Shown here piece after piece: positions 5,154 through 59,494 of a DNA stretch of 64,000 bases. The notes below the pieces were generated by a model that saw only the letters and a list, made by a program, of their open reading frames with translations, did no database searches and was not told where the DNA came from. This stretch comes from Candidatus Adlerbacteria bacterium (GTDB lineage Bacteria > Patescibacteriota > Minisyncoccia > Phycocordibacterales > SBAW01), in contig JARIGK010000002.1 in the NCBI GenBank assembly GCA_029288895.1, positions 29,545 to 93,544 on the forward strand, written 5' to 3'. Made by a program: the position numbers and the translations under genes. How positions within the stretch are numbered: the first letter of the stretch is position 1; every line of letters starts with the position of its first letter.

Positions 5154-6989
5154 TTACGCCTCGCGTTCCTCCTCTGCAACTTCTGGACCCATTTCGTCGT
5201 CTTGGAGGAAGCCGCCTGCCTGGATGCTCCACAGTTTGTGATAGAGGCCTTTGTGTTCGATCAATTCTTGGTGCGTACCTTGTGCCGCAACGCGGCCGTT
5301 TTCAATCACGATGATGCGGTCCATATTCATGATGGTCGAGAGGCGGTGCGCGATAACGATGACCGTTTTGCCTTCCATCAAATTTTTCAGTGCGTCTTGG
5401 ATGAGTGCTTCCGATTCAGAATCCAAACTCGACGTTGCTTCGTCGAGCACAAGTATCGGCGAGTTCTTTAATATCGCGCGGGCAATGGCAACACGCTGCC
5501 GCTCGCCGCCCGAGAGTTTGATGCCGCGCTCGCCCACGTACGTTTCGTACCCATCTTTCAATTTCGAAATAAACTCGTGGCAATGCGCTTTTTTTGCAGC
5601 TTCTATCACTTCAGCTTGTGTCGCATCGCGTTTGCCGTAGCGAATGTTTTCGAACAACGTGCGATGGAAGAGTATCGGTTCTTGCGGTACAAAGCTAATC
5701 GCCTCACGCAAGCTGTCCTGGGTCACCTGTGCAATATTCTGCCCATCTATCTCAATGGCACCTCCTTTAATATCAAACATGCGCAGCAAGAGGCGCGTTG
5801 TTGTTGATTTGCCTGCGCCAGATGGGCCAACAAACGCCACCTTCTCAGCACCTTTAATAGAGAGATTGAAATCGGAAAGAATACTTTTGTCGTCAGCGAA
5901 TGAGAACGAAACATTGGCGAAATTTATATTTGCCTTCTCTACTGCGAGAGGTTTCGCATCTTGTGCATCACGTATTTCGTGCGGTGTTTTCAATATCTCG
6001 ACCATCTCGCCCGCGTCAGCAAATGCATCATAGAAACGGCGTAGCTGGCCGCCGATACCCATCAATTGGTTGAAGGTGCCAAGCAGGTACGATTGGATAA
6101 GCACGAAATCGCCAACCGTCAGCAACCCGCGTTCCCAATAAATAATCGCACCGTAGAGAAGCCCGCCTTGGATGCACAGCACGAAGAGGCCAATAATCCC
6201 CCAGGTCCATCCGTCGATAAGCCATGAGCGCAGCGTTGCTTTGTGCCAGAAACGCACAACGTCGCTCAGGATGCTTTGTTCGTGTATAACACCGGCAAAT
6301 TGCATCACGGTGGGCTGGTTAGAAATGGCGTCAGCGATCGTACCGGTAACTTTTGTTTCTGCTTCAGCACGGGATGTGCGTGATGCTTGCCGAAGTTTTG
6401 CGATATATACCTGGCAGACAATAAAGAGAATTGCCCATGCGGCCAAAATACTGCCGAGCATATGATTGCGGGTATACAGCACAAATATTGCACCCGACAC
6501 GAACAATAGCGCAGGGAAAAACTGCGTAAGGATCGTATCCGAGATCATTTCAAACGAGCGGACAAGGCGGCTGATGCGATGCGTAAGCGTGCCCGCAAAG
6601 TTTGAGATAAAGAAGCTGTATGAGTGGCCAAGCAAATAGCCAAATGAGTCGTTGTATAGGTCATGCATCACATCTGCCACGTAGAAGATGTTTGCGGTGT
6701 CCTGGAGGCGCTGCATAAGCCAACTGATAAACCACATCAGGCCAACAAGCGCGAGCGTCATCACAAGTGCGTGGATGGTCGTGGGTGTAGGTGTCTCAAG
6801 TGCAAGCAGGTTAAAGAATTTACGCAAGAAAAGAGGCGCCGCCAAGTTGCTTGCCTGGAGGAATATACCGGTAAGGAAAATGGCGAGGAGCCACTTCCAT
6901 TGGCGCCGTACGTACGGGAGGTACACACGCAATATTTCGCCGGCCGGAACCGACTTTTTAGGCTTATGTTCGGACATTTTTTCTATCAT
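5154..6989 (-). CDS. ABC exporter with fused TMD and NBD, MsbA/multidrug-like.
   Basis: 611 aa. Walker A GPSGAGKST, signature LSGGERQRVAIARA, Walker B ILVLDEATS and an N-terminal 6-TM domain. Confidence 0.85.
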   Translation of the reverse strand: MIEKMSEHKPKKSVPAGEILRVYLPYVRRQWKWLLAIFLTGIFLQASNLAAPLFLRKFFNLLALETPTPTTIHALVMTLALVGLMWFISWLMQRLQDTANIFYVADVMHDLYNDSFGYLLGHSYSFFISNFAGTLTHRISRLVRSFEMISDTILTQFFPALLFVSGAIFVLYTRNHMLGSILAAWAILFIVCQVYIAKLRQASRTSRAEAETKVTGTIADAISNQPTVMQFAGVIHEQSILSDVVRFWHKATLRSWLIDGWTWGIIGLFVLCIQGGLLYGAIIYWERGLLTVGDFVLIQSYLLGTFNQLMGIGGQLRRFYDAFADAGEMVEILKTPHEIRDAQDAKPLAVEKANINFANVSFSFADDKSILSDFNLSIKGAEKVAFVGPSGAGKSTTTRLLLRMFDIKGGAIEIDGQNIAQVTQDSLREAISFVPQEPILFHRTLFENIRYGKRDATQAEVIEAAKKAHCHEFISKLKDGYETYVGERGIKLSGGERQRVAIARAILKNSPILVLDEATSSLDSESEALIQDALKNLMEGKTVIVIAHRLSTIMNMDRIIVIENGRVAAQGTHQELIEHKGLYHKLWSIQAGGFLQDDEMGPEVAEEEREA

Positions 6990-7096
6990 ATCATAATATT
7001 GACAAATTTTAAATCTTTGGTTTATTGAGTGACGATGAGTTCGGCTAAGGCATCCCGCCTTTGACGATTAATGAATATCGTTCATGGAGGATATGA

Positions 7097-7903
7097 TTGA
7101 GCGACCTAGCGTCTATGCTTCTCAGTCGGGAAGCTTTCGACGTCCTGAAGGACGTGTTTGTTGCCGAGATTGGCGACAAAACCATGATGGTAACCTTGGG
7201 CCTTGCCGAGGTGTTCGCCATCCGACTCGTGCTTGCGGGCGTCACGCCCGCTTGCTTCGTGGTCCCGGCCGTCGGCGTCCTTATCGGTATCGGCCTGAAA
7301 GGGATCATTCCTATTGCTGCGCTGAACTATAGCTGCGCCGTCCTCTTCCTGGGGCTGGCCTGGTGGTCTATCAAAGAAGGCCAAGAGGACGGCGAGGAGG
7401 ACGAAGAAGAGAAACCGCTCTCGGAATGGTTCTTCATCCGCGCCTTCCAGATTTTCCTCCGCACGCTGAACCAGCTGACCCATTGGCTCAAGCACAAGGC
7501 GCGGCATAGCGGAGGGTGGGCAGTCGCCCTTGCCTTCACCATCTTCTCCATCGCCGAGATGGCGGACCGGACGCAGTTGGTCACGATTACCAAGACGGTC
7601 GAAGGCTCGAACTGGGTCACCGATCTGGTGGCCTCGGGCCTCGGCCTGCTGTTCGCAAACGTGGCGGCGCTGATCATCTTCTACTTCGCCCGTTCGCTGT
7701 TGAAACGACGGGTTCTGATGTACGCTGCTGCCACGCTCTTCCTGCTCTCGGCGGCCCGGATTATCCTCCAGGGCTGGGGCTATGACCCATCATGGTATCT
7801 GCTGGCGTCGGTTTTCTTTGCCTTGTTGGCCACCTACCCTATCGGGTCTCGGGTGTTCAATTTCCCAACAGGCCCTGAAAAGCCAAAACAGATCTACGCC
7901 TAA
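7097..7903 (+). CDS. UPF0016/GDT1/TMEM165-family cation (Ca2+/Mn2+ : H+) transporter-like membrane protein. The gene is high-GC and probably foreign.
   Basis: Two E-x-G-D-(K/R)-T repeats (AEIGDKTMM and AEMADRTQL) separated by an acidic loop (EDGEEDEEE). It may start with TTG at 7097 (SD GGAGG) or with ATG at 7115. Confidence 0.7.
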   Translation: MSDLASMLLSREAFDVLKDVFVAEIGDKTMMVTLGLAEVFAIRLVLAGVTPACFVVPAVGVLIGIGLKGIIPIAALNYSCAVLFLGLAWWSIKEGQEDGEEDEEEKPLSEWFFIRAFQIFLRTLNQLTHWLKHKARHSGGWAVALAFTIFSIAEMADRTQLVTITKTVEGSNWVTDLVASGLGLLFANVAALIIFYFARSLLKRRVLMYAAATLFLLSAARIILQGWGYDPSWYLLASVFFALLATYPIGSRVFNFPTGPEKPKQIYA

Positions 7904-11293: not shown

Positions 11294-12451
11294 ATGTGGC
11301 CTGTGGGCATTTTTTTGTTGTGCGCTTCCATTGTGTTGCGGGTCATTTCCTACCCAGTCATTACCTCCGACTACACATACTTCTTAAAGGAATGGTTCAA
11401 CGCCCTTTCCACGCCTGGCCTTTCCGCCTTTACCAGCCCCTTTGCCGACTACGCGCCTCTCTACCTTTACCTAATCAAGTTCTTGACCCTCTTCCCTGTT
11501 TCGAGCCTCTATAGCATCAAGACACTCTCTGTCGTGTTTGATGTTGGTATCACGGCGCTTACATGCCTCATCCTCTATATGCTTGGTATTACAGATAGGG
11601 CGCGGTTGTTCCTTTCATTTGCGATTGTATTCATCACGCCAACCTTCTTGGTGAATAGCGCGCTCTGGGGTCAGTCCGACTCGCCATACGCGTTCTTTGT
11701 ATTACTTTCGTTTTACTTTTTACTGAGAGACAAACCGTCGTTTGCAACGCTCTCGTTTTCCGTGGCTCTGTGTCTCAAGGTACAGGCGATATTCTTCCTG
11801 CCTATTCTTGCAGGCTACCTCTTCCGCCGCAGAGAAGACTTGCCCTACATTGTGCTTGTGCCGATTGTTTTTTTGGCGAGCATCTTGCCTGCGTGGGTTG
11901 CGGGCGGCTCGTTCTCATATTGGTTTATGATCTACGCAAAACAGTCGGGCGAATATACGAGCCTTTCTGTCTCGGCGCAGAGTCTATTGTCGTACGCACA
12001 AGCGCTCTACTTCCCCGGACCTGTACAGAACGCACTTTTTTGGATATCGATCATCGCTTCGCTTTTGGCGGCGCTTTATATATTCGTCCTTGTTGCACGC
12101 GCAGGCCTCTCGGGCCCCGAGCGTATGATGCTGCTCACACTTTTGTGCGTCGCGCTTCTCCCGTACCTCCTTCCGCGCATGCACGAACGGTATTTCTACT
12201 TGGCTGATGTCTTTGCCGTACTCTTCGCACTGTGGCGGCCGCGCGCGTGGTACATTGCGGTGCTTGTGGTGCTCTCGTCGCTTCTTTCGTATCAACCATT
12301 TCTCTCACAACTCTCATTTGTAAAAGCACTTCCCTACGTCGACTTGCGCATGCCTGCGACCATACTTCTCTTTGCAATTATTTTTATCGTGGCCGAAGTT
12401 CGACGCACTCCTGAAATTGAGCATGAAGACGCGCGCTTCAGTCTGCCTTAA
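11294..12451 (+). CDS. GT-C fold integral-membrane glycosyltransferase (DUF2029/GT87-like).
   Basis: 385 aa polytopic membrane protein. It has the HERYFY-type motif typical of DUF2029 mannosyl/glycosyltransferases. It is the first gene of the plus-strand polysaccharide cluster. Confidence 0.55.
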   Translation: MWPVGIFLLCASIVLRVISYPVITSDYTYFLKEWFNALSTPGLSAFTSPFADYAPLYLYLIKFLTLFPVSSLYSIKTLSVVFDVGITALTCLILYMLGITDRARLFLSFAIVFITPTFLVNSALWGQSDSPYAFFVLLSFYFLLRDKPSFATLSFSVALCLKVQAIFFLPILAGYLFRRREDLPYIVLVPIVFLASILPAWVAGGSFSYWFMIYAKQSGEYTSLSVSAQSLLSYAQALYFPGPVQNALFWISIIASLLAALYIFVLVARAGLSGPERMMLLTLLCVALLPYLLPRMHERYFYLADVFAVLFALWRPRAWYIAVLVVLSSLLSYQPFLSQLSFVKALPYVDLRMPATILLFAIIFIVAEVRRTPEIEHEDARFSLP

Positions 12452-12570
12452 TGGTTGCCCGCGTATGGTGGCATTACACGAGGCCCTAAAACAGTTTTTG
12501 GACCCGTTGCAATCTGTAGAACTTATGAGCCCTTTAGTCAGAGCTTCGCTCCAAGCTCGTCCACATACAT

Positions 12571-13698
12571 ATGACCAAACCCATATCGCTGTCGATTTTC
12601 TTCCCCACCTACAATGAGGAAGACAACATTCGCGAAACTGTGCTGCGCACCATTGATGTAGTTGAAGGCTCACCCTACGTTGATGAGTACGAAATTCTCG
12701 TCGTAAACGACGGCAGTAAAGACAAAACTCTCGAGATCGCGCGCGAACTTGAGCGTGACTACCCCGGCGTGCGCGTGGTAAACCACGAACAAAACAAAGG
12801 CTATGGCGCTGCGCTTAAAAGCGGCATGGCTGCAGCAACGAAAGACTACGTCTTTTTTACCGATGCCGACTTACAGTTCGATATTAAAGAATTGCAAAAC
12901 TTGCTGGTGCACTTGGACACGCACCCTGTTGTCATTGGCTATCGCGCGCCCCGCCGCGACAGTGCGATGCGCCTTTTTAATGCGTGGGGGTGGAACAAGC
13001 TCAACCGTTTATTGTTTGGCCTGCGTATCCGCGATATCGACTGCGCATTTAAACTCTTCCGTCGCAGCGAACTGCAGAAAATAAAATTGAAATCAAAAGG
13101 CGCAATGATCAGTGCCGAAACATTGATCCGCCTCACACGCCGCAATGTGGCCGTCAAAGAGGTACCGGTCTCTCACTTGCCGCGTACCGCGGGCTCGCCC
13201 ACGGGCGCCAAGCCGTCGGTTATTTTGCGCGCGTTCCAGGAAATGATTGAACTCTATCGTGGCGAATTAGGTGGTGCAACACAAAAAGAAGCGTTGCGTT
13301 TTATGTCGGTCGGCGTCATCAACACACTGCTTGATGCTGCGATCTACATCATGCTCACGCGTGGTATGGAATTCTTCGCTGTGCACCTGACGGTCGCAAA
13401 GTTTGTCTCATTCTTGGGCGGCACGCTCTCAAGTTTGCTCTTAAACCGCAGTTGGACCTTTGGTATCCGTACGCCTCTTACAACCGGCGAAGTTGTGCGT
13501 TTCTACACGACGACCTCGGCTGCAATTGTCGTCAACGTACTCGTGATGAATGCACTCGTTGGTGCGGGTATGTACGACTTGCTGGCGCTTGCAGTCACTA
13601 CCGTCTTTACTTTCGCGGTTAACTTCACCCTCTCGAAATTCTGGGTCTTCCGCCAAAAGGATGCCCCATCTGCTCAACAAAAAGGCTATGCGATTTAA
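12571..13698 (+). CDS. GT2 glycosyltransferase (polyprenyl-phosphate sugar synthase-like, DPM1/GtrB-type) fused to a C-terminal GtrA-like 4-TM domain.
   Basis: IFFPTYNEEDNI and VVNDGSKDKT GT2-A motifs. The C-terminal 120 aa carry GtrA-like TM helices (MSVGVINTLLDAAIYIML..., KFWVFRQ). Confidence 0.8.
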   Translation: MTKPISLSIFFPTYNEEDNIRETVLRTIDVVEGSPYVDEYEILVVNDGSKDKTLEIARELERDYPGVRVVNHEQNKGYGAALKSGMAAATKDYVFFTDADLQFDIKELQNLLVHLDTHPVVIGYRAPRRDSAMRLFNAWGWNKLNRLLFGLRIRDIDCAFKLFRRSELQKIKLKSKGAMISAETLIRLTRRNVAVKEVPVSHLPRTAGSPTGAKPSVILRAFQEMIELYRGELGGATQKEALRFMSVGVINTLLDAAIYIMLTRGMEFFAVHLTVAKFVSFLGGTLSSLLLNRSWTFGIRTPLTTGEVVRFYTTTSAAIVVNVLVMNALVGAGMYDLLALAVTTVFTFAVNFTLSKFWVFRQKDAPSAQQKGYAI

Positions 13699-14179
13699 CT
13701 CACTTCTTACATCACCCATATTCCACGCCGTAGCGAAAAAGCCCGCTAAGACTGAAAAGCAACACGCTACTTCTACAACTCCAGCGCCTGTACAAGCAAC
13801 GCCTGTGGTTGTAGCGACCAGCACACATCCCGTGCCACCTCCGGCGGCTCATACAGCAACGACGAGTGCGGCGACATCGTCTGCTCCTGTCGCGGCAACA
13901 ACTGTGGGGGGCAAACAATCATCAGCGCAAACACGAACACTCTCTACCAGCGTTGGCGTAGTTTCGGCGCCAGAACATAGCACACTCCTTAACCCCTATG
14001 CGGGCGCAGGCGGCCTTACGCCTGTGGGTACGGCAAGCCTCGTGCTTGGTGCCGCGGTGATGGCAAGCCTCGGCCTCCTCTTTGTGCGCGGAGAAACGCT
14101 CGGAAACTCGTACGAGCGCCTGGTGCGATTTATTGGGGTCAAGGCCCCGCCCCGTGCTGTGCGTTCACGTCACGCATAA
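13688..14179 (+). CDS. Ala/Thr/Pro-rich low-complexity protein with a C-terminal hydrophobic anchor (hypothetical).
   Basis: Same frame as ORF-track 13550..14179, with the probable start at the ATG overlapping the GT2 stop. The sequence reads ATSTTPAPVQATPVVVATSTHPVPPPAAHTATTSAATSSAPVAATT... followed by LVLGAAVMASLGLLFV. Confidence 0.4.
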   Translation: MRFNSLLTSPIFHAVAKKPAKTEKQHATSTTPAPVQATPVVVATSTHPVPPPAAHTATTSAATSSAPVAATTVGGKQSSAQTRTLSTSVGVVSAPEHSTLLNPYAGAGGLTPVGTASLVLGAAVMASLGLLFVRGETLGNSYERLVRFIGVKAPPRAVRSRHA

Positions 14180-14191
14180 ACAAACACATAT

Positions 14192-15409
14192 ATGGTGTCG
14201 CGATTGCTGGGCTACATATTGCTCCTGTGTGCAGCTGTGCTCATAGGCGTGGCAATTTATCGCAACTCGACCAAGAGCGAAGTGCCGCTTACCTTTGCGC
14301 CCAACCAAGTGCTTGACGCAACGTGGGTTGCGTACAAAAAAACTTTCATCGAGGCAGGAACCTTCCGCACCTTAGATAAACAGCGCGGCGACATTACCAC
14401 ATCGGAAGGCCAGAGCTACACGATGCTGCGCGCAGTGTGGATGGGCGATAAAGATACCTTCGATGGTGCATGGAAGTGGACCGGGAGCTATCTCCATCGA
14501 AATGATGATCATTTGTTTTCGTGGCTGTGGGGCCAGCGCCCGGGTGGTGCATACGGCGTGATCACAGAACAGAGCGGTCAAAACACCGCGTCGGATGCCG
14601 ATGAAAATATTGCGCTTGCACTTATCTTCGCCTACGCACGCTGGCAAGACCCCGCATATCTGGCGAGTGCGCGCGACATAGTGGGCGACATCTGGGATAA
14701 GGAGGTGATCGTCATTGGCGGCGTCCCCTACCTCACCGCAGACAACTTAGAAAAAACATCCGCGAGCCAAACTGCAGTGCTCAACCCGTCCTACATGGAG
14801 CCTGCGGCGTACAAAATCTTTGCCGCTATCGACCCGACGCATCCGTGGAACAAACTCGCCGACAGTTCGTACATCGTTCTGCAAAAAAGCATGAACGCAG
14901 AACTGGGGAGCGGTGCATCTGCTGGCCTTCCGCCCAACTGGGTTGGGATCGACAAAACATCAGGGAGCCTTGTGCCGCTGCCTGGCACAAACGACACCAA
15001 CTATAGCTACGACGCGATGCGCGTGCCATGGAATATCGCGCTCGACTGGCAATGGTTTGGCGACAAACGTGCACAGACCCTCCTTTCGAAGATGTCGTTC
15101 TTGGGGGCGCAGTGGGACAAGAACCACGCACTTGCAAGCGTCTACAACCACGCAGGCGGTACGGTCACTCCGGAAGAATCGCCGGCCATCTACGGAGGCG
15201 ACCTCGGCTACTTCCTTGTTGCGCAACCGGTAAAGGCAAAAGACGTGTACGAACAAAAGCTCCTCTTCCTCTACAACCCTGGCCTTAACGACTGGAAGCA
15301 ACAACTTTCCTACTACGACGCAAATTGGGTGTGGTTTGGCATCGGGCTCTACAACAATTTGCTCCCCAACTTAGCAAACGACGTACCAAAGACCGCGATT
15401 ACTCATTAA
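14192..15409 (+). CDS. Glycoside hydrolase family 8 endo-beta-1,4-glucanase (BcsZ/CelA-like) with an N-terminal signal anchor.
   Basis: TTSEGQSYTM (the GH8 catalytic-acid region SEGQ.Y), ASDADENIALALIF and an aromatic-rich C-terminus. The size is 405 aa. Confidence 0.8.
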   Translation: MVSRLLGYILLLCAAVLIGVAIYRNSTKSEVPLTFAPNQVLDATWVAYKKTFIEAGTFRTLDKQRGDITTSEGQSYTMLRAVWMGDKDTFDGAWKWTGSYLHRNDDHLFSWLWGQRPGGAYGVITEQSGQNTASDADENIALALIFAYARWQDPAYLASARDIVGDIWDKEVIVIGGVPYLTADNLEKTSASQTAVLNPSYMEPAAYKIFAAIDPTHPWNKLADSSYIVLQKSMNAELGSGASAGLPPNWVGIDKTSGSLVPLPGTNDTNYSYDAMRVPWNIALDWQWFGDKRAQTLLSKMSFLGAQWDKNHALASVYNHAGGTVTPEESPAIYGGDLGYFLVAQPVKAKDVYEQKLLFLYNPGLNDWKQQLSYYDANWVWFGIGLYNNLLPNLANDVPKTAITH

Positions 15410-15419
15410 CAAAACGCGT

Positions 15420-16979
15420 ATGAACACGAACTACGATCACACACCACACGACCTCCGCACCGACTTTTTGGAAACAAAGACGCCTAAGATGCTGTTTGTC
15501 ATAAACGCAGTGCTTGCGGTGGCATATTTTGCCGTACTCGTGTTCTTCTTCCCTATCGGCAACAAGCTATTGTTTGCGTTGCTTATCGCAGGCGAAATAT
15601 TCCACCTGTGGCAGGTGCTCACCTTCCTCTATACGGTGTGGGATACAGAATATGAGGCACCGCGGAACCCATCATTCCATCCGCCTGTCGATGTGTTTAT
15701 TACCGTGGCAGGCGAACCTGTCGAGCTCGTACAAAAAACAGTGGCCGCTGCGCGCGCAATGAACTACCCGAACTTTGATGTCTATATATTGAATGACGGC
15801 TACGTTGCGGGCAAAGACAACTGGCGCGACATCGAAGCGCTCGCGAGCCGCATGGCGGTCAATTGCATTACACGCACAGTGCCTGGTGGTGCCAAAGCCG
15901 GCAACATTAACAATGCACTCAAATTAACGAAGAGCCCGCTTGTAGCAATATTTGACGCCGACCATGTGCCGCGCGGCGACTTCTTGCGCGCAACGGCTGC
16001 CTACTTTGCCGACCCTACGGTGGCCTTTGTGCAGACGCCGCAGTTCTACAAAAACTATAGCGAAAACTTCATCACCAAAAGCTCGTGGGAACAGCAAGAA
16101 CTTTTCTTCGGGCCCATCTGCAAAGGTAAAAATCGGTTAAACGCAGCGACCATGTGCGGCACCAACATGTTGATTTCGCGCGAGGCACTTGTTGATGTGG
16201 GCGGTATGTGTACCGAGTCGATCGCGGAAGATTTTATCACCGGCCTTATGATCCACGCGCGCGGGTGGCGTTCTGTCTACCATGGAGAAGTGTTGGCCGA
16301 AGGGTTGGCTACAGAAGATCTTCTGTCATATTCAAAGCAACAGTTCCGCTGGGCACGCGGCGCGCTTGATGTTATCTTCCGCTACAACCCGCTTTTTATG
16401 CGTGGGTTGTCATGGGCGCAAAAAATACAGTACTTGGCGTCGGCGAGCTTCTACCTCTCTGGATTGTTCGTGGTGCTTGATGCACTTCTCCCCGTTATTT
16501 ACTTCTACACCGGCACTGTGCCTGTGATCATCTCCGGCATGCTCTTGGCCTCCTTCTTTTTGCCGTACCTCTTCTTTACGTTCTACGTCATTCAACGCAC
16601 CAGTAACTCAACCTTTACCTTCCCGAGCCTTGGCTTCTCGATGGGCAGCTTCAATATCCAATTGCAAGCGCTCTACTCGGCAGCGACATTCCAACGTTCA
16701 GCATTCGGCATCACGCAAAAGAAAAAACTTGAAGGTAATTTCGTTGGGCTGGTCAAATGGCACATTGCTTATGCGGCACTGGTCGTGGGCGGCATCGTTG
16801 TGGCCTTCCTACGCGAAGGGTTCTCGGCGTCGCTCTTCAATAACATTGCGTGGGGCGCATTGAATATCATCATCTTCCTGCCGTTTATCCGTGCCGCATT
16901 CCCTGAACGTACACGCAATCAGTCTGTACCGCTCGGGACACCTGTAGCACAGAGAACATATGCCGTACGAAAACACTAA
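15420..16979 (+). CDS. Processive family-2 beta-glycosyltransferase (cellulose synthase/BcsA-like catalytic core) with no PilZ domain.
   Basis: DAD (IFDADHVP), TED-like (AEDFITG) and QxxRW (QQFRWARG) motifs. It has 2 N-terminal and about 4-5 C-terminal TM helices and is 519 aa. Confidence 0.8.
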   Translation: MNTNYDHTPHDLRTDFLETKTPKMLFVINAVLAVAYFAVLVFFFPIGNKLLFALLIAGEIFHLWQVLTFLYTVWDTEYEAPRNPSFHPPVDVFITVAGEPVELVQKTVAAARAMNYPNFDVYILNDGYVAGKDNWRDIEALASRMAVNCITRTVPGGAKAGNINNALKLTKSPLVAIFDADHVPRGDFLRATAAYFADPTVAFVQTPQFYKNYSENFITKSSWEQQELFFGPICKGKNRLNAATMCGTNMLISREALVDVGGMCTESIAEDFITGLMIHARGWRSVYHGEVLAEGLATEDLLSYSKQQFRWARGALDVIFRYNPLFMRGLSWAQKIQYLASASFYLSGLFVVLDALLPVIYFYTGTVPVIISGMLLASFFLPYLFFTFYVIQRTSNSTFTFPSLGFSMGSFNIQLQALYSAATFQRSAFGITQKKKLEGNFVGLVKWHIAYAALVVGGIVVAFLREGFSASLFNNIAWGALNIIIFLPFIRAAFPERTRNQSVPLGTPVAQRTYAVRKH

Positions 16980-18498
16980 AACACCAACAAGAGATATAGT
17001 GCTGCTCGTATGCATTATGCTCATTCCGCTTGCCTTGTCCGCCTTCTTCTTTATGGGGCAGAGCTTGCGGCTCGACGAAGCACAGAGCCTCTGGCAAACC
17101 AGCCGCAGCGTGTCAGCTATCTTCAAGCAAGTGGGCAGCGATGTGCACGTCCCCTTCTACCACCTATTACTGCACTTCTGGCAGATATATTTTGGCGCGA
17201 CAATTGTCTCGGCGCGCCTGATGTCGCTGCTGTTTTACGAACTCTCGATCCCTGCGCTCTACCTGCTTGGGCGAACAAGCTTTAACCGCCGCATTGGGCT
17301 GTATGCTGCATTTCTCTTTGCACTCTCGCCGTTTATGAATTGGTATGGCAACGAGATACGCATGTACACGCTGTTTACGTTCTTCACTATTTTGAACCAA
17401 TACTTCTTTGTACGTATATGGAAAGCGCGCACGAGCCTTGCGGGCGAAGAGCAGCGGCAGTCGCATATATGGGCTGGATACATTCTCACCGCCGTGTTTG
17501 GCGTCTTCTCGCACTACTTTTTCTTCCTCAACCTGCTTGCACAAGTTGTATTTTATTTTGTGCGATGGAAGACATTCCCCGAGGGATCGTTCCGCCGGTT
17601 TCTCTTTTCTGCGGGGGTTGTCGTCGCGGCATTTGTGCCGTGGGTGCTGTATGTGCTGCGCTTGGGAACCATTGGTTTCCAAGAGCCGCTGCTTACGCCG
17701 CCCACATCAGTGAATCTCTTTAGCACGTTTGCACAATTTCTCTTTGGTTTCCAAAACGACAACATTAACACCTTCTTCTTGGCGCTGTGGCCATTGGTTG
17801 TAGTGTTGGCGCTCTTAGCGCTGCGGCGCAAACGTCGTGCGCTGCCCGAGACAGAATATTTCTTGGCGACCATTATTCTTTCCTTTGCGGTGGCGTTCGT
17901 AGTGAGCTTGGCCATAGCGCCTGTATTCGTAAGCCGCTACCTTATCTTTACGATCCCCTCCTTTTACCTATTGCTCGGCAGTTTGTTTGTCACGTATGAA
18001 GCGCGGTTTGCGGTATTTCTTCAGCGTTCGCTCGCATTGCTCATGGTGGTGATGTTGGCGGTCGAGATTGCGAGCCCAAGTACGCCGGTGAAGGAAAATT
18101 ACGAGCAAGCGACTGCCTACATCAGCGCGCATGCGACACCGCAAGATGTGATTGTGTTGTCGGCGCCGTTTACGCTCTACCCAGTGCAGTACTACTACCG
18201 CGGCGCGTCGCCTATCGAGACTCTGCCGCTGTGGGATAGATACGATTTTGGCCCCATCCCGCCGTTTGTTGCTGCAAACTTAGAGAGTGAGGCCAAAACT
18301 GCCGTAGGAAGCAGCCAGAATGTGTATTTGTTGTTGTCGTACGACCAGGGCTACGAGAAGACAGTGTATGACTACTTCAACTCACACTACCAGATGGTCG
18401 ACAAGGAGCATTTCTCGGATGACCTTAACTTGTACGTGTACAAGTTGCGCTACGACACGGCCAAAACGAGTCAGGCGACAACAACGGCTCTGCGCTAA
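16960..18498 (+). CDS. GT-C fold membrane glycosyltransferase, PMT_2/ArnT-like (GT39/GT83-like).
   Basis: 512 aa with more than 10 TM helices and an ArnT-like N-terminal region (SARLMSLLFYELSIPALYLLGR). It overlaps the upstream gene by 20 nt. Confidence 0.6.
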   Translation: MPYENTKTPTRDIVLLVCIMLIPLALSAFFFMGQSLRLDEAQSLWQTSRSVSAIFKQVGSDVHVPFYHLLLHFWQIYFGATIVSARLMSLLFYELSIPALYLLGRTSFNRRIGLYAAFLFALSPFMNWYGNEIRMYTLFTFFTILNQYFFVRIWKARTSLAGEEQRQSHIWAGYILTAVFGVFSHYFFFLNLLAQVVFYFVRWKTFPEGSFRRFLFSAGVVVAAFVPWVLYVLRLGTIGFQEPLLTPPTSVNLFSTFAQFLFGFQNDNINTFFLALWPLVVVLALLALRRKRRALPETEYFLATIILSFAVAFVVSLAIAPVFVSRYLIFTIPSFYLLLGSLFVTYEARFAVFLQRSLALLMVVMLAVEIASPSTPVKENYEQATAYISAHATPQDVIVLSAPFTLYPVQYYYRGASPIETLPLWDRYDFGPIPPFVAANLESEAKTAVGSSQNVYLLLSYDQGYEKTVYDYFNSHYQMVDKEHFSDDLNLYVYKLRYDTAKTSQATTTALR

Positions 18499-19800
18499 TT
18501 AGTGCGCGTTTTGCGCCAAGCCTTGTGCGTACTGCTGCCACCAGGTACCTGCTGAGGGGCCGCCATTGCAGTAGCCATCGCTTTCTCCTGGGGTTTTGAC
18601 CCACAAGTAGGCGTCAACAAGTGCGTTGCCCGTTGATGTGGTTGGGGCTTGGCCAATTGCGCGGCCAGATGGGTTGCACCAGTCGCCGTTTGAACCATTG
18701 CCGTTGCGGCTTGTGTCGATAATGAAGTGCGATGTTTTACCAATTTTCTGCTGGAGGGCTGCGCTAATCTGCGAGCCGTACGATGCTTCGCTTGCAGTGC
18801 CGTCGAAGTTGGAGACATTCAACGAGAAGCCATCCGCTTGCGCAATATTTGCAGCTGCGAGACGGCCTGCCATAACAGATGGGTCGTTCCATCCAGAGTG
18901 GCCGGCATCAAGGTAGACCTTTGTGTTTCCGTTTTGCTTCAAGATCTGCACCGCTTGGCTCAAAAGCGAGTAGCGCGTGCTTTGGTCGCCTGAGGAGAGG
19001 CACGTGATATTTGCGAGCGCGTCAGGCTCCAAGATAACGGTTGCAGGAGATGAGCCAATGCCTGAAGCAAGAGAGCGGATCCAATTTATATAGTTTGATT
19101 GGCTTGTGCCGCCCGATGAATACCCACCGCAGTCGCGGCCTGGGATGTCGTAGGCAACCATCACGGCATTTTTACCTCCTGCGTTTGCGACAAGCGAGTG
19201 GGCATCGTTTTGGATATTCGAATTCCAATCACCAAACCATGTTGCAACTGGTTGCGATGCCAATGCTTGGATGCCGCTCTTCGCTACGCTTGTATTCGGG
19301 TTTACATAGAAACCGTTTGTAGAGAATTGAACAGGGCTCTGCAGCGTAAAAGTCTGCGTAGGCTGAACAGCAGTTACTGTTGGAAACGATGCTGGCGCCA
19401 CAGTTGCTGGTTGGTCGATGTAGATCTGCTCAGACTGCTGAGCGATAACCGCGCCGTTTTTGCGCTCGATAAAGTTAATAGTATATGGGCCTGAGCCGCG
19501 CCAGTTCCATCCGGAGACATTTACGCTTGCCTCTTTGTGCTGGTAGTCGGTGTAGTTGTTGTCCATGGGGACCCACTGCCCGCCGTCGACTTGCCAAAAC
19601 ATGTCGTACTGGGAGACGTCGGTGCCCGGCACCATTGCCTTAAATGGCTGCGTGCCGGTAACATGGGCGCCATTGGTTGGCCACCAGACGTTAACGTCCG
19701 ACGCAGCAGTCACAAGCGGCAAGCCATAGAGATAGATTGATAACGCTATTGTTAAGAGTGTGAGAACTCGCACCTTCTTCACGTTATGTACAGTTTTCAT
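18499..19800 (-). CDS. Secreted glycoside hydrolase family 6 (cellulase/cellobiohydrolase-like) with a novel ~95-aa N-terminal module.
   Basis: Signal peptide MKTVHNVKKVRVLTLLTIALSIYLYGLPLVTAAS. GH6 motifs ILEPDALANI and DAYLWVKTPGESDG. The ORF track extends to 19905; the internal start at 19800 is preferred because of the signal peptide. Confidence 0.75.
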   Translation of the reverse strand: MKTVHNVKKVRVLTLLTIALSIYLYGLPLVTAASDVNVWWPTNGAHVTGTQPFKAMVPGTDVSQYDMFWQVDGGQWVPMDNNYTDYQHKEASVNVSGWNWRGSGPYTINFIERKNGAVIAQQSEQIYIDQPATVAPASFPTVTAVQPTQTFTLQSPVQFSTNGFYVNPNTSVAKSGIQALASQPVATWFGDWNSNIQNDAHSLVANAGGKNAVMVAYDIPGRDCGGYSSGGTSQSNYINWIRSLASGIGSSPATVILEPDALANITCLSSGDQSTRYSLLSQAVQILKQNGNTKVYLDAGHSGWNDPSVMAGRLAAANIAQADGFSLNVSNFDGTASEASYGSQISAALQQKIGKTSHFIIDTSRNGNGSNGDWCNPSGRAIGQAPTTSTGNALVDAYLWVKTPGESDGYCNGGPSAGTWWQQYAQGLAQNAH

Positions 19801-19977
19801 AACTTCACGAGTATAAAGATCTCGTTCCCTTGACCGCAACGCACTTCCTATCCCACAGTCAAAAATTTTCAAATCGTTGTTCTCTGTAATGCTCAAAAAC
19901 TTCATGAACCAACATGACGTTTTAACAATAGCGCATTAGCAATTCATCATCTGTGGATGAGATTTTCTTGCGTTATA

Positions 19978-55558: not shown

Positions 55559-55569
55559 AACTTGTTTTG

Positions 55570-55640
55570 TGGACCCGGCGAGAATCGAACTCGCGCCTCT
55601 GCAATGCGAATGCAGCGTTGTACCACTTAACTACGGGCCC
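55570..55640 (-). tRNA. tRNA-Ala (anticodon CGC).
   Basis: Manual fold: acceptor GGGCCCG/CGGGUCC with G3:U70 (the Ala identity element), anticodon loop UUCGCAU and T-arm GGUUCGAUUCC. CCA is not encoded. Confidence 0.8.
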
Positions 55641-55670
55641 ATCGCTCAATATATAGAGCGGGAAACTGGT

Positions 55671-55739
55671 CGGGATGCCGAGAATCGAACTCGGGTCTTA
55701 CGCACCCGAAGCGTACATAATGCCACTATACGACATCCC
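55671..55739 (-). tRNA. tRNA-Pro (anticodon CGG).
   Basis: Manual fold: 5' GGGATGT..., anticodon stem-loop UACGC-UUCGGGU-GCGUA and T-arm GAGUUCGAUUCUC. Confidence 0.7.
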
Positions 55740-55788
55740 GTACTCCTCAAACCGCTCCGCGCATATCGGGTTTGCATCGCGAAGCGTG

Positions 55789-55862
55789 TGCACCTTGTAG
55801 GGCTCGAACCTACGACCTCACCCGTGTGAAGGGTGCGCTCTAGCCAACTGAGCTAAAGGTGC
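55789..55862 (-). tRNA. tRNA-Val (anticodon CAC).
   Basis: Manual fold: D-arm AGCUCAGUUGGCUAGAGC, anticodon loop UUCACAC and T-arm GGUUCGAGCCC. Confidence 0.8.
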
Positions 55863-56178: not shown

Positions 56179-56334
56179 ATGGCGCAGAAAGAGAAACTCG
56201 ACCTCACGAAAATGCTTAACGAAAAGCTCGATGAGGTCGCAGAAGAAAAAGGTATCTCAAAAGAAGAGATCTTGAAAAAGATCAAAAAGGGTACCGGCTC
56301 AAGCAAAGGCCAGAAAGTAATCCTCTTGAACTAA
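56179..56334 (+). CDS. Tiny ORF (51 aa), a hydrophilic Lys/Glu-rich helical peptide.
   Basis: AAGGAG SD 6 nt upstream. It encodes MAQKEKLDLTKMLNEKLDEVAEEKGISKEEILKKIKKGTGSSKGQKVILLN and is followed by a terminator. Confidence 0.4.
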   Translation: MAQKEKLDLTKMLNEKLDEVAEEKGISKEEILKKIKKGTGSSKGQKVILLN

Positions 56335-56335
56335 G

Positions 56336-56372
56336 CACCTCCGCCACCTCGGCGGAGTTTTCTTTTACTGCG
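56336..56372 (+). terminator. Rho-independent terminator CTCCGCC-ACCTC-GGCGGAG plus TTTTCTTTT.
   Basis: 7-bp GC stem and a U-tract immediately after the third tiny ORF. Confidence 0.55.
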
Positions 56373-58101
56373 TGTAGATATTTATTGATTTGGTGGAGAT
56401 TGCAGTACCGCTTGAGTTCGTGCTGGTAAAGGTTATGGTGTACGGCCCTGCACCCTTCCAGTGCCAACCACTAAGGTCGACGAGCGCTTCTTTGTGTGGA
56501 TAGTCTTGCGAGCTGTTGTACATCTGCACGCGCGCACCTCCGTCGACAGACCAGTACATGGTGTATTGCGAGACATCAAGTCCACTGACCATTGCCTTAA
56601 ATGGTTGCGTGCCAGTTACATGCGAGCCGTCGGATGGCCACCAAATGTTGGTTACGCTGCTGCCCGATGGTGGCGGTGTGCTTGGCGGAGGCTGCGAGCC
56701 TGCACTCACCGTTATAGTTGCAGCGCTGTCGTTCCAGCTGTAGGTCTTGGACCAGTCACCCGTAAAGACACCAATCTTAAACGTGTAGGTGCCCGCACTA
56801 TTTGGCATAAAGCTTCCGCCAAACGTTTTTGTTTGCCCTTGGCTAAAGTTTTGCCCACCTTGGAAGGTTTGATACACGCGTGTGCCGCCTTGGTACACCT
56901 CCAAGTCAACCAGTGTGCCGCTCGTGCTGCCCGCAGTCTCTGTAACATTTGCCGAAATTTGCACTGTCTGCCCCACAGTTGCAGTGGCTGGCGCACCGGC
57001 GCTTGTACTAAACGTTACCGAACTTGGCGGCGGGTTTGATGGCGTCGTGCCACTAAGCCACCACTGTTTAAGCGTCTGCTCTGCCGGTTTGTTTTGCGGC
57101 GTGTAGTCAGTGTCGCCAGCTCCGCCCGCATTTGGATTGCTCTTCCACCACCACATATCGACACCTGTCATGTACGAATATTTGTTCCAGTAATCAAACA
57201 GCGCGGTATAGTCATTTATCTGTTCTTGCGAATTATAGTTGCCGCTCATGCCAGAGTCCCAGGGGAAGCTGTGAGCATTGTCGACGCTTCTATATCCAAT
57301 TTCGGTAAAGATAATTGGCTTTGTTGGATACTTTTGGTGGATTGGGTTGATGTCGTAATCGTTCATCCCCTGCCAGTCGCTTTCAAGGGAGGCAACCGAA
57401 CCGTCGCCAAACAATCCGTAGTAGCCCGACACGCCGATCAAATCGAGCTTATCCCAAAAGCCAATATTTGGAAGTTCTGCGCCCCACGCGGTGTGATCTT
57501 GCTCGCCACGGTTGGCGCTATAGCTAAGCGCACCGCTATATACCGCGCGTACATTTGCGATCATCGTATTCCATCGCTGCGTGTTGTCACTATTTGTATT
57601 GGCCGACGCCATACTAATGAGTTCGGCACCCAAGACAAACTGCTCCACTCCATACTGCTGGCCCAGCCTGCCGTAGTACACGAGCGTGTTGCCATAGTTT
57701 CGGTACCACGTGTCGCGATCGCCCGGGTTAATCACGGCGCGCCACTCGCCCGAATATGTTTCCAAATAGAGCGCAATACTTACGTGGAGCCCAATCGAGT
57801 GCGCGTATTGGATGGCAGAAATAAGCGACGAGTCGGACGGCGTGTTCCATCCGCGGCCAATGTCAGTACTGCCCGAGTTCGATTGATAGTACGGGATGAT
57901 CAGGTTTACATAGTTCGCACCATCGGCTTTTAAATTTCGCAGCGATTGCTGGAACGAGGCCGAACTATAATCTTCTGTCCCTTGCGGGATGATGCTAAAA
58001 CTTTTCTGCCAACTGCTTACCGCCGCCTCTGCGTGTGGCACATATCCAAATTGCCCAATAAAAAGACCCACTAGTGCAACTATTGAAATAGCCTTTTTCA
58101 T
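56365..58101 (-). CDS. Secreted multidomain glycoside hydrolase. It has an N-terminal TIM-barrel GH-A-clan-like catalytic domain (mannanase/glucanase-like), a middle Ig/CBM-like domain, and a C-terminal ~95-aa module shared with the GH6 at 18499..19800.
   Basis: Signal peptide MKKAISIVALVGLFIGQFGYVPHAEA, candidate nucleophile motif IIFTEIGY, and Thr/Pro linkers. The C-terminus reads WWPSDGSHVTGTQPFKAMVSGLDVSQY...GPYTITF. Exact GH family is not resolved. Confidence 0.65.
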   Translation of the reverse strand: MKKAISIVALVGLFIGQFGYVPHAEAAVSSWQKSFSIIPQGTEDYSSASFQQSLRNLKADGANYVNLIIPYYQSNSGSTDIGRGWNTPSDSSLISAIQYAHSIGLHVSIALYLETYSGEWRAVINPGDRDTWYRNYGNTLVYYGRLGQQYGVEQFVLGAELISMASANTNSDNTQRWNTMIANVRAVYSGALSYSANRGEQDHTAWGAELPNIGFWDKLDLIGVSGYYGLFGDGSVASLESDWQGMNDYDINPIHQKYPTKPIIFTEIGYRSVDNAHSFPWDSGMSGNYNSQEQINDYTALFDYWNKYSYMTGVDMWWWKSNPNAGGAGDTDYTPQNKPAEQTLKQWWLSGTTPSNPPPSSVTFSTSAGAPATATVGQTVQISANVTETAGSTSGTLVDLEVYQGGTRVYQTFQGGQNFSQGQTKTFGGSFMPNSAGTYTFKIGVFTGDWSKTYSWNDSAATITVSAGSQPPPSTPPPSGSSVTNIWWPSDGSHVTGTQPFKAMVSGLDVSQYTMYWSVDGGARVQMYNSSQDYPHKEALVDLSGWHWKGAGPYTITFTSTNSSGTAISTKSINIYTQ

Positions 58102-58331
58102 TCCACAACCCTATCTCATCGGCACTGTAGCAGAGGTGAATTAAGAAGAGTTTATGAAACAAGCAATTGCTATTTTTGACAAATAGAAATTTTATGCTAG
58201 ATTACTACCGCTGTTCTTTATATATCAGATCGGACCTCCGACCCAGTAAATACAACGTTTATTGGCCCGGAGGTCTGATGACCTGTCCTGCTTTTGGCGT
58301 CCGCCACAAGCATCTCAAGGAGAGACTGCAA

Positions 58332-59306
58332 ATGAAGCATCGTATCCTGGCCTTCGCGGCCGTCGCCATGGTGGCGGGATTCGCTCCCCTCACCTCGGCT
58401 TTCGCCCAGAACCAGTCGGTCGGTTGCCCGGCCGGCGGCACCTGTCTGATGACAGGCGGTGAAAAGGGCGACTACTACAAGTACTTCGGCAAACCCGTTG
58501 CCGAAGTCTTGGCGAAGGTCGCCTGGGACGACGTGACCGTGTCGACGTCCAAGGGAACGCCGGACAACATGACGTCCGTGGCCGCCAACCCGGGCAACTA
58601 TGGCCTCGGCCAGGCCAACGTCGTCGCCAAACTGATCAACACCGAGCCGTACAAGGGCAAGGTGCAGATCGTCAACACCCAGTCGATCGGCCAGGAGCTC
58701 GTGTTTCTTGTCGTCTCGCCGAAGCTCTACGAGCGGGCGTCGTTCTATGGCACGATCGCCAACAACGCGGCCAACGTGAAGTTCGTGATGCCGGGCAAGG
58801 ATACTGGCCCCGGCGTGACGTTCGACCAGCTCACCGAGCTCGATCCGCGGCTGCAGAAGGCCAAGAGCGTCGAGCGCGTCAATTCGGTGGACGATGCCAT
58901 CGACGTGGTGGCCAGCGGCCAGGCGCAGGCGACTCTCGTGGTCCAGTTCGCCAACCCGAACAACGATCGCTTCAAGATCATCAAGGAGAAGGGCCTCCGG
59001 ATCGTCCCGGTGCGCCATCTCCCGATGCTCAGCGTGAAGCTGCCGGGCGGCCAGTCGGCCTTCGTGGCCTGCGGCGGCCAGGAAGTCGGCGACAAGGAGC
59101 CCACCTCGGGCGTCTGCACGCCCATCGTGCTGATGACGGGTGTCGCCAATACGAACCCGAAGATCGCCGATTTGGCGAACGTGCCGAGCGACCAGTTCGC
59201 GCCGAAGGATGTGTCCTTCGCCGCCTTCTGGAAGAAGGCCAAGGCGGCAGCCGCCAAGGCCACGGCCGAGGCAGCAACCTGGGCTAACGAGAAGATCGGC
59301 GGGTAA
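58332..59306 (+). CDS. Secreted periplasmic-type solute-binding protein (TAXI-TRAP/PhnD-like type-2 PBP fold). The gene is high-GC and probably horizontally acquired.
   Basis: AAGGAGAG SD and signal peptide MKHRILAFAAVAMVAGFAPLTSAFA. The GGTCLMTGGEKGDYYKYFG motif resembles the TAXI TGGTGG.YY motif. GC is above 60 %, with GCC/GGC/CTC/CCG codon bias unlike the neighbours. The ORF-track start at 58167 is a spurious extension. Confidence 0.65.
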   Translation: MKHRILAFAAVAMVAGFAPLTSAFAQNQSVGCPAGGTCLMTGGEKGDYYKYFGKPVAEVLAKVAWDDVTVSTSKGTPDNMTSVAANPGNYGLGQANVVAKLINTEPYKGKVQIVNTQSIGQELVFLVVSPKLYERASFYGTIANNAANVKFVMPGKDTGPGVTFDQLTELDPRLQKAKSVERVNSVDDAIDVVASGQAQATLVVQFANPNNDRFKIIKEKGLRIVPVRHLPMLSVKLPGGQSAFVACGGQEVGDKEPTSGVCTPIVLMTGVANTNPKIADLANVPSDQFAPKDVSFAAFWKKAKAAAAKATAEAATWANEKIGG

Positions 59307-59312
59307 CTCCTC

Positions 59313-59352
59313 TGGTCTGACAGATACCGACCCCCACGCGAGCAATTGCTTG
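59313..59352 (+). terminator. Terminator hairpin CCCCCACGCGAGCAATTGCTTGTGTGGGGG plus TTATTTTTTA.
   Basis: Long GC stem with G-U pairs, then a U-tract after the PBP gene. Confidence 0.5.
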
Positions 59353-59384
59353 TGTGGGGGTTATTTTTTATACAAAATTGCTCA

Positions 59385-59418: not shown

Positions 59419-59421
59419 TTG

Positions 59422-59494
59422 TGGACCCTACCGGGATCGAACCGGTCGCCTCCTCATTGCAAATGAGGCGCTCTACCAAATGAGCTAAGGGCCC
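59422..59494 (-). tRNA. tRNA-Ala (anticodon UGC).
   Basis: Manual fold: acceptor with G3:U70, D-arm AGCUCAUUUGGUAGAGC, anticodon loop UUUGCAA and T-arm GGUUCGAUCCC. Confidence 0.85.

Follow-up and report, generated by a model that had tools for sequence, protein, structure and literature searches.

The window analyzed here is a stretch of 64,000 nucleotides from a Candidatus Adlerbacteria bacterium (contig JARIGK010000002.1, positions 29,545 to 93,544), and our subject is a gene on its minus strand that encodes a 578-residue protein of glycoside hydrolase family 113 (GH113) with two β-sandwich domains following the catalytic domain, the last of which recurs in a GH6 protein encoded in the same window. 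The explanation that we favor, and to which we give a chance slightly above even, is that the protein is a secreted β-1,4-glycanase that is tethered through its terminal module and works together with a cellulose-synthase-like system for an envelope glycan. The enzyme would cleave a β-1,4-linked glycan by retaining double displacement, with E267 as nucleophile and E160 as acid/base, and its substrate may be mannan, glucomannan or a glycan made by the cell itself. The CARDB-type immunoglobulin (Ig)-like domain in the middle would act as a spacer, and the terminal module of ∼95 residues, restricted to Patescibacteria-type proteins, would anchor the enzyme to a polysaccharide or to the cell surface, a device shared with the GH6 of this organism and, in relatives, with GH8, GH5, GH12 and peptidoglycan hydrolases. 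As part of a conserved gene set around a CelA/BcsA-like synthase, comprising GH8, a glycosyltransferase of family GT2, PMT_2, GH6 and GH113, the enzyme would serve to trim or release a self-made β-glycan in the cell envelope, or to clear a path for it. The gene and its product are laid out as follows, with amino acid numbers given for the protein.

56365..58101, minus strand: complete GH113 gene from the open reading frame list (578 residues, ATG start, stop codon at 56365-56367)
58024..58101, minus strand: predicted Sec signal peptide, residues 1-26, with predicted cleavage after AEA
57046..58023, minus strand: GH113 catalytic domain, residues 27-352 (Pfam envelope, residues 43-337)
57622..57624, minus strand: codon of E160, predicted general acid/base in the motif VLGAE (codon checked)
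57301..57303, minus strand: codon of E267, predicted nucleophile in the motif IIFTEIGY (codon checked)
57016..57045, minus strand: linker 1, TPSNPPPSSV, residues 353-362, seen in the sequence, its columns weakly conserved in the alignment
56692..57015, minus strand: middle Ig-like β-sandwich, probably of CARDB/Wzt_C type, residues 363-470
56653..56691, minus strand: linker 2, PPPSTPPPSGSSV, residues 471-483, seen in the sequence
56368..56652, minus strand: C-terminal shared Ig-like module, residues 484-578

All domain boundaries were verified by translation, and the plus-strand open reading frames that overlap 56365..58101 are without support. Homologs of the protein align across 96-100% of its length, and every one of the best 120 has the same order of parts, GH113, then zero to two middle domains, then the module, which is better conserved than either of the other two domains (mean identity to the query: module 61%, catalytic domain 55%, middle domain 42%). 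Those homologs that carry names all belong to Patescibacteria (Parcubacteria, Kaiserbacteria, Adlerbacteria, Paceibacterota, Magasanikbacteria, Saccharibacteria and Minisyncoccia). Two relatives bear the NCBI name 'glycoside hydrolase family 113', and the family call is not new, as public annotation pipelines already recognize the family in close relatives; a protein identical to ours (P0001) is present, without a name, in NCBI-derived data.

The assignment of the catalytic domain to GH113, and with it the predicted retaining mechanism, is almost certain on the strength of sequence comparison. The Pfam profile PF22612 matches with E = 6.9e-47 and 160.6 bits against a cutoff of 27, covering profile positions 10-288 of 289, while an NCBIfam scan of the whole protein gave no matching model. 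A phmmer search of the PDB gave significant matches to nothing but the three structurally characterized GH113 β-1,4-mannanases, aligned over the whole domain: AxMan113A (5ylh, 2.2e-25), AaManA (4cd6/3civ, ∼2e-21) and BaMan113A (7dv7, 7e-18). With a profile built from 80 homologs these matches rise to between 1e-43 and 2e-49 (1.9e-49 for 5ylh), and the end-to-end alignment with the solved GH113 barrels predicts a (β/α)8 fold. The counterpart of E160 in the alignment is Glu143 in the 5ylh chain and Glu176 in the 7dv7 chain (E152 in the numbering of PMC10992819), and E267 aligns with Glu223 of 5ylh, a position at which the chain 5yli has Ala; both residues are Glu in 80 of 80 homologs. The aromatic and Arg residues that bind sugar in the solved mannanases are kept as well, W120, Y227 and W317 in all 80 homologs, R121 and Y333 in 78, and W319 in the query. 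Enzymes of clan GH-A work by a retaining double-displacement mechanism. The original prediction, made by a model from the DNA letters, had described a secreted 578-residue protein with a GH-A-type hydrolase domain, a nucleophile in IIFTEIGY, Pro-rich linkers and a β-sandwich middle domain, and had named detection of a GH-clan fold by hidden Markov model as the test; the GH113 profile is what that test found, the hydrolase class is sharpened accordingly, the remaining parts of the description hold, and the name CBM (carbohydrate-binding module) that it also gave to the middle domain is at most putative.

Residues E114, N197 and W318 stand at the places of N98, D183 and D283 in PMC10992819 and might be read as signs of a new specificity, a reading that we rejected as evidence. 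At the N98 position the GH113 clade studied here has Glu or Asp in 73 of 80 members and at the D183 position Asn in 80 of 80, and position 318 varies even inside the clade. Among 63 distant GH113 proteins from metagenomes that are free of the module, 50 show the combination D...N, and AaManA likewise has Asn at the D183 position. The state with an acid followed by Asn is thus in the majority among distant GH113 proteins, so that what the pattern sets apart is the Firmicutes clade, and it does not mark a new specificity. A separate observation concerns PMC10992819 itself, where eight substrate-binding residues of GH113 are described as 'strictly conserved': the statement fails for AaManA, with Asn at D183, and for most non-Firmicutes GH113 proteins, which have Asp or Glu at N98. 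The chain 7dv7 is BaMan113A, the template of the PcMan113 model, and the numbering of that paper is one off relative to the chain after approximately residue 250.

Export of the protein is predicted from its N-terminus (MKKAISIVALVGLFIGQFGYVPHAEA, with AVSS following the predicted cut), where a basic n-region is followed by a hydrophobic core (15 residues with a Kyte-Doolittle value of 2.24) and by an A-x-A site that is kept in the homologs (A24 in 65 of 80, A26 in 79 of 80). The signal peptide call is a heuristic one, from hydrophobicity and the conserved A-x-A site. A scan of the protein found zero Cys, hence no lipobox, and no second hydrophobic or transmembrane segment. Because the A-x-A site is conserved and both Cys and any other hydrophobic segment are absent, the simplest reading is that the protein is soluble and secreted after cleavage of a Sec signal peptide.

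Behind the catalytic domain the structure models are confident for both accessory domains. Residues 363-470 are modeled as a β-sandwich with a predicted local distance difference test score (pLDDT) of 94.6, which by its model is an Ig-like domain, probably of CARDB/Wzt_C type, scoring just under every Pfam cutoff; the likeness to CARDB (PF07705; 3IDU) and to the Wzt C-terminal domain (PF14524; 6O14) is one of modeled fold type. The C-terminal module is modeled as an Ig-like β-sandwich of seven to eight strands. Its invariant residues are W-W-P, G, Q-P, Y, M, W, V-D, M, H, E, W-x-W and Y, and the W-x-W motif sits in a loop of the predicted model. When 31 members were compared with Pfam nothing better than E ∼0.002 was obtained and no hit was recurrent, a search of PDB sequences gave no match, and searches of Pfam, NCBIfam and PDB sequences found no membership of the module in a described carbohydrate-binding module (CBM) family. 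A side observation is that the precomputed annotation of 8 of the 120 homologs (P0009, P0010, P0011, P0015, P0034, P0091, P0107 and P0116) includes PF28202.1, which might be a newer family covering one of the accessory domains.

A tblastn search of the window with residues 476-576 returned one other copy of the module, 56% identical over 101 residues and far beyond chance. It lies in the GH6 gene that closes a cluster of glycosyltransferase and glycanase genes at 11294-19905, in which a GT87-like membrane glycosyltransferase and a GT2-GtrA fusion are joined by GH8, GT2, PMT_2 and a convergent, module-bearing GH6.

14192..18498, plus strand: GH8 (BcsZ-like), CelA/BcsA-like GT2 without PilZ, and PMT_2 glycosyltransferase (Pfam, NCBIfam)
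18499..19905, minus strand: GH6 gene with the partner module (PF01341, E = 4.5e-65)
19420..19719, minus strand: partner module copy (tblastn, E = 7e-31), N-terminal in the GH6 protein, after the signal peptide

The true start of the GH6 is likely the Met at 19800, which yields the signal peptide. With this GH6 and with the GH8 (PF01270, 7.4e-40) in the window, the shared C-terminal module of the original prediction, and its GH6 and GH8 alongside the present hydrolase, are borne out. The module copy of the GH113 protein is nearest to GH113-borne modules elsewhere (57-63%) and that of the GH6 protein to GH6-borne modules of other genomes (57-72%). Since the two copies in the window share 56%, less than each shares with modules of its own enzyme family in other genomes (57-72%), we rejected the idea that the module was duplicated recently in this genome; it follows that both fusions are old and have been maintained apart.

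A profile search of 1.84 billion representative proteins places the module family at 435 clusters with E <= 1e-3 and 162 with E <= 1e-30, and the matches that carry a source name are from Patescibacteria. Among the best 150 clusters, many of them short fragments, ∼47 belong to GH113 and carry the module C-terminally, ∼29 belong to GH6 and have at the N-terminus a single copy or up to three in tandem, and four belong to GH8. A Pfam scan of 40 members with unassigned partners added GH5 (3), GH12 (2) and Peptidase_M23 (6), together with CHAP, Peptidase_S8, Peptidase_C14, PA14, NPCBM, Malectin, CBM_2 and CBM_6. One to five copies occur, at either terminus, with five in tandem in P0121 (1018 residues). 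Two giant proteins, P0205 (4287 residues) and P0244 (2864 residues), show 14-17 partial module matches. Carbohydrate binding by the module, a predicted property that fits the conserved aromatics and the enrichment on β-glycanases, is proposed here for a domain that falls in no CBM family, and its presence on M23 and CHAP peptidoglycan hydrolases would fit a function located in the envelope. We judge it rather probable that the module is a targeting device by which the enzyme stays attached to a polysaccharide or to the surface of the cell.

The link to a synthase comes from gene neighborhoods. Orthologs of the window cluster, 46-74% identical and in the same order, are found at five of the ortholog loci (L004, L012, L017, L024 and L036). 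Linkage was counted over 19 ortholog loci with at least 8 kb of flank, and at 10 of them GH113 lies near GH8, the CelA-like GT2, PMT_2 or GH6. Chance linkage is crudely expected at 3-14% per locus, giving P < 1e-4, a binomial value that overstates the independence of 19 loci from related genomes. The arrangements are the following.

L004: GH6, two GH113 genes, PMT_2, GT2 and GH8 within 17 kb
L002 and L003: GH8 immediately upstream of GH113
L006: GH6 and PMT_2 ∼6 kb downstream of GH113
L017 and L036: co-directional GH8, GT2, PMT_2 and GH113 in this order, with ∼160-180 bp between the PMT_2 and GH113 matches
L012: the window cluster order (GT2, PMT_2, reversed GH6), with GH113 adjoining GH6
L024: the window cluster order (GT2, PMT_2, reversed GH6), with GH113 ∼3 kb from GH8

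Apart from this count, distant GH113 proteins free of the module (30-40% identity) at L033, L051, L054 and L087 have GH8 and/or a cellulose-synthase-like GT2 within 10 kb, and those at L033 and L051 lie near GH8 plus GT2. These four homologs probably belong to other phyla, which suggests that the association of GH113 with a synthase is wider than the candidate phyla radiation (CPR). At L004 a longer GH113 paralog of 830 residues (5383-7875), also ending in the module, is found directly upstream of the ortholog on a 981-kb Patescibacteria contig, and L013, L076, L077, L079 and L088 have two or three GH113 genes per locus. A literature search on Parcubacteria, Patescibacteria or CPR in combination with cellulose synthase or cellulase found nothing relevant.

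Taken by itself, the role of the GH113 enzyme as partner of a synthase stands at about an even chance, and several observations weigh against it. In the window the gene lies 36 kb from the cluster, beside tRNAs and the ATP synthase operon, in an apparently monocistronic position; the other nine of the 19 loci, whose relatedness has been noted, are without linkage; all assigned GH113 activities are on β-mannan or manno-oligosaccharides, which are no obvious match for a linked synthase that looks cellulose (glucan)-like; and in structure the module comes closest to Ig-like/X1 domains, which the literature describes as spacers or stabilizers and not as proven CBMs. A catabolic role is accordingly a serious rival, to which we assign a chance well short of even: the protein would be an extracellular endo-β-1,4-mannanase used to feed on environmental or host mannan or glucomannan, the module a CBM, and GH6 and GH8 companion cellulases that scavenge wall material of plants or algae. 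The secreted clades 2-4 of GH113 are endo-mannanases acting on polymers, characterized members favor konjac glucomannan, the module occupies the place where GH6 cellulases of other bacteria usually have a CBM and is strongly enriched on GH5, GH6, GH8, GH12 and GH113, with CBM_2 also present in one member, and the separation of gene and cluster in the window speaks for such a role too. However, a recurrent operon-like position right after GH8, the CelA-like synthase and PMT_2 is unlike that of an enzyme used purely for foraging, and neither a sugar transporter nor a mannose-catabolism gene was found beside GH113 in nine annotated loci. A CBM specific for mannan or cellulose also leaves the module on M23/CHAP peptidoglycan hydrolases and on proteases unexplained, and the large clade 5 of GH113 has shown no activity on mannans, so that membership in the family is insufficient to establish activity.

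The original prediction had proposed instead that the glycanases remodel a polysaccharide of a host or partner. In the form considered here GH113, GH6 and GH8, together with the module-bearing M23/CHAP proteins, would serve an epibiotic lifestyle by attacking or remodeling the wall and surface polysaccharides of a host cell, the module binding the host surface, and we find this quite improbable. Patescibacteria include episymbionts, the named matches of the module family are from this group, all the proteins are predicted to be secreted, and a module common to glycanases and to peptidoglycan hydrolases and proteases is as expected for a common targeting domain. Yet the tight linkage to a biosynthetic cluster of GT2, PMT_2 and GT2-GtrA argues for a self-made polymer, and a module so well conserved in Patescibacteria of widely differing lineage and habitat speaks for a conserved ligand and against diverse host surfaces; the neighborhoods point to the organism's own cellulose-synthase-like system at least as strongly as to remodeling of a host polysaccharide. 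It is improbable too that the module is a mere structural spacer or stabilizer, spread by domain shuffling, as in the X1/Fn3-like and Ig-like domains of CbhA, CfMan26A and TpMan. The central domain of TpMan (6TN6), the Ig-like module of C. fimi Man26A (2BVT) and the X1 modules of C. thermocellum CbhA (3PDD/3PDG) are 11-19% identical to ours, with no sequence-level match, and serve as internal linkers. The module studied here stands in every case at an end of the protein (the C-terminus on GH113, the N-terminus on GH6), is highly conserved with Trp, Tyr and His residues that do not vary, forms tandem arrays and occurs on peptidases as well; both of its fusions have long been kept separately, and a CARDB-like domain is already present at the spacer position. 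That the barrel is an inactive, lectin-like pseudo-enzyme merely binding glycan would agree with the many tested GH113 proteins in which no activity was seen, a point not specific to this protein; the invariance or near invariance of the catalytic Glu pair and of the sugar-binding aromatics in the 80 homologs makes it very unlikely. A module-tethered glycanase that works with the synthase thus remains the reading that we prefer. A wider version of it, which is tentative and for which we see a clearly smaller chance, holds jointly that across CPR a PilZ-less CelA-like synthase, PMT_2/GT87-type glycosyltransferases, GH8, GH6 and GH113 form a hitherto undescribed envelope-glycan system that is not one of plant-mannan degradation, and that the unclassified Ig-like module tethers glycanases, peptidoglycan hydrolases and proteases to the self-made β-glycan or to the wall.

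Comparison with known systems shows what is ordinary here and what is not. We know of no GH113 in bcs or cslA-glxA systems, and Streptomyces, the host of the latter, has no outer membrane. The likeness to BcsZ (the GH8 of bcs operons) and to CslZ (GH6) with LpmP is that a gene for a secreted β-1,4-glycanase likewise stands beside that of a processive GT2 synthase; the CPR cluster resembles bcs in its BcsZ-like GH8 and CelA-like GT2 (NCBIfam) and differs from bcs and cslA-glxA in being without PilZ, BcsB and GlxA, in its extra PMT_2, GT87-like and GT2-GtrA genes and, in the window, in the 36 kb that separate it from GH113. In the Streptomyces cslA-glxA-cslZ locus with lpmP, the GH6 and a lytic polysaccharide monooxygenase are needed for deposition of the glycan beyond the peptidoglycan, and the same source calls CslZ a promiscuous hydrolase (PMC9040799).

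Within GH113 itself, AxMan113A (5YLH), BaMan113A (7DV7) and AaManA (3CIV/4CD6) share with our protein the family profile, the Glu pair and the Trp, Arg and Tyr substrate residues. They are single-domain, intracellular Firmicutes enzymes with no signal peptide, whereas the present one is predicted to be secreted and has two β-sandwich domains, as well as Glu and Asn at the N98 and D183 positions, the majority state in distant environmental GH113 proteins. Couturier et al. 2022 (PMC9032380) found GH113 to be almost entirely single-domain, with activities of endo-mannanase or reducing-end mannosidase, and studied no Patescibacteria enzyme. Their clade 5 is large, mostly from Bacteroidetes, mostly secreted and often near GT2 genes; no substrate was found for it, and it was proposed to serve in building or remodeling a self-made polysaccharide such as a biofilm or storage glycan. 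Going by this description, the window protein is likewise predicted to be secreted, with catalytic residues kept and, at many ortholog loci, GT2 neighbors, and differs in its phylum and in its architecture, clade 5 being essentially single-domain with no shared accessory module reported.

The enzyme itself is of an ordinary family, and it is the module and the gene association that are worth following. In a family otherwise almost entirely single-domain, and with no characterized member from Patescibacteria, there is here a whole clade with a fixed three-domain architecture, and an unclassified Ig-like module of narrow range, found on GH113, GH6, GH8, GH5 and GH12 enzymes as well as on peptidoglycan hydrolases, may be a targeting device that they have in common. 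From the repeated linkage to a synthase come a testable hypothesis on the surface polymer of organisms with reduced genomes and a rationale for those parts of GH113 that are so far without a substrate. If the wider version of our reading is true, it would give GH113 a new physiological role, possibly with a specificity other than mannan, and ultra-small bacteria a new family of wall- or glycan-anchoring domains.

The GH113 gene appears to be monocistronic in the window, where it is preceded by a divergent TAXI-like gene and a tRNA-Ala and followed by a GC-rich hairpin, three tRNAs, a DUF5667 gene and the ATP synthase operon.

56339..56357, no strand assigned: GC-rich 7-bp hairpin from a terminator scan, 7 nucleotides past the GH113 stop and 4 past the stop of the convergent reading frame
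56179-56334, plus strand: convergent Lys/Glu-rich open reading frame of 51 residues (open reading frame list)
55569-55862, minus strand: tRNAs Ala-CGC, Pro-CGG and Val-CAC (Rfam)
59421-59494, minus strand: tRNA Ala-TGC on the other flank of GH113 (Rfam)
58329-59306, plus strand: secreted protein of 325 residues with the signal MKHRILAFAAVAMVAGFAPLTSAFA, within the open reading frame 58167-59306, in a stretch of raised GC content (0.55)

The hairpin is probably a bidirectional terminator shared by the GH113 gene and the convergent reading frame, with a T-run that is good on the plus strand only. A promoter scan upstream of GH113 found no convincing sigma-70-type sequence, the sole minus-strand match lying in coding region and the total number of matches being at shuffle level, and Rfam gave nothing near the gene beyond the four tRNAs. 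The locus L007 repeats the order Ddl, Pterin_4a, variable spot, GH113 and ATP synthase, and at L009 GH113 adjoins the ATP synthase operon; from this shared position it follows that GH113 occupies a stable core-genome spot in the lineage. The 325-residue protein has no Pfam match, scoring 24.5 bits against a cutoff of 84 in a weak, sub-threshold comparison with the TRAP-TAXI solute-binding family, and its gene is followed by a strong terminator at 59329-59362. This gene fills the variable spot between Pterin_4a/tRNA-Ala and GH113 and may be a horizontally acquired insert, because at L007 the same spot holds different genes, four small ones.

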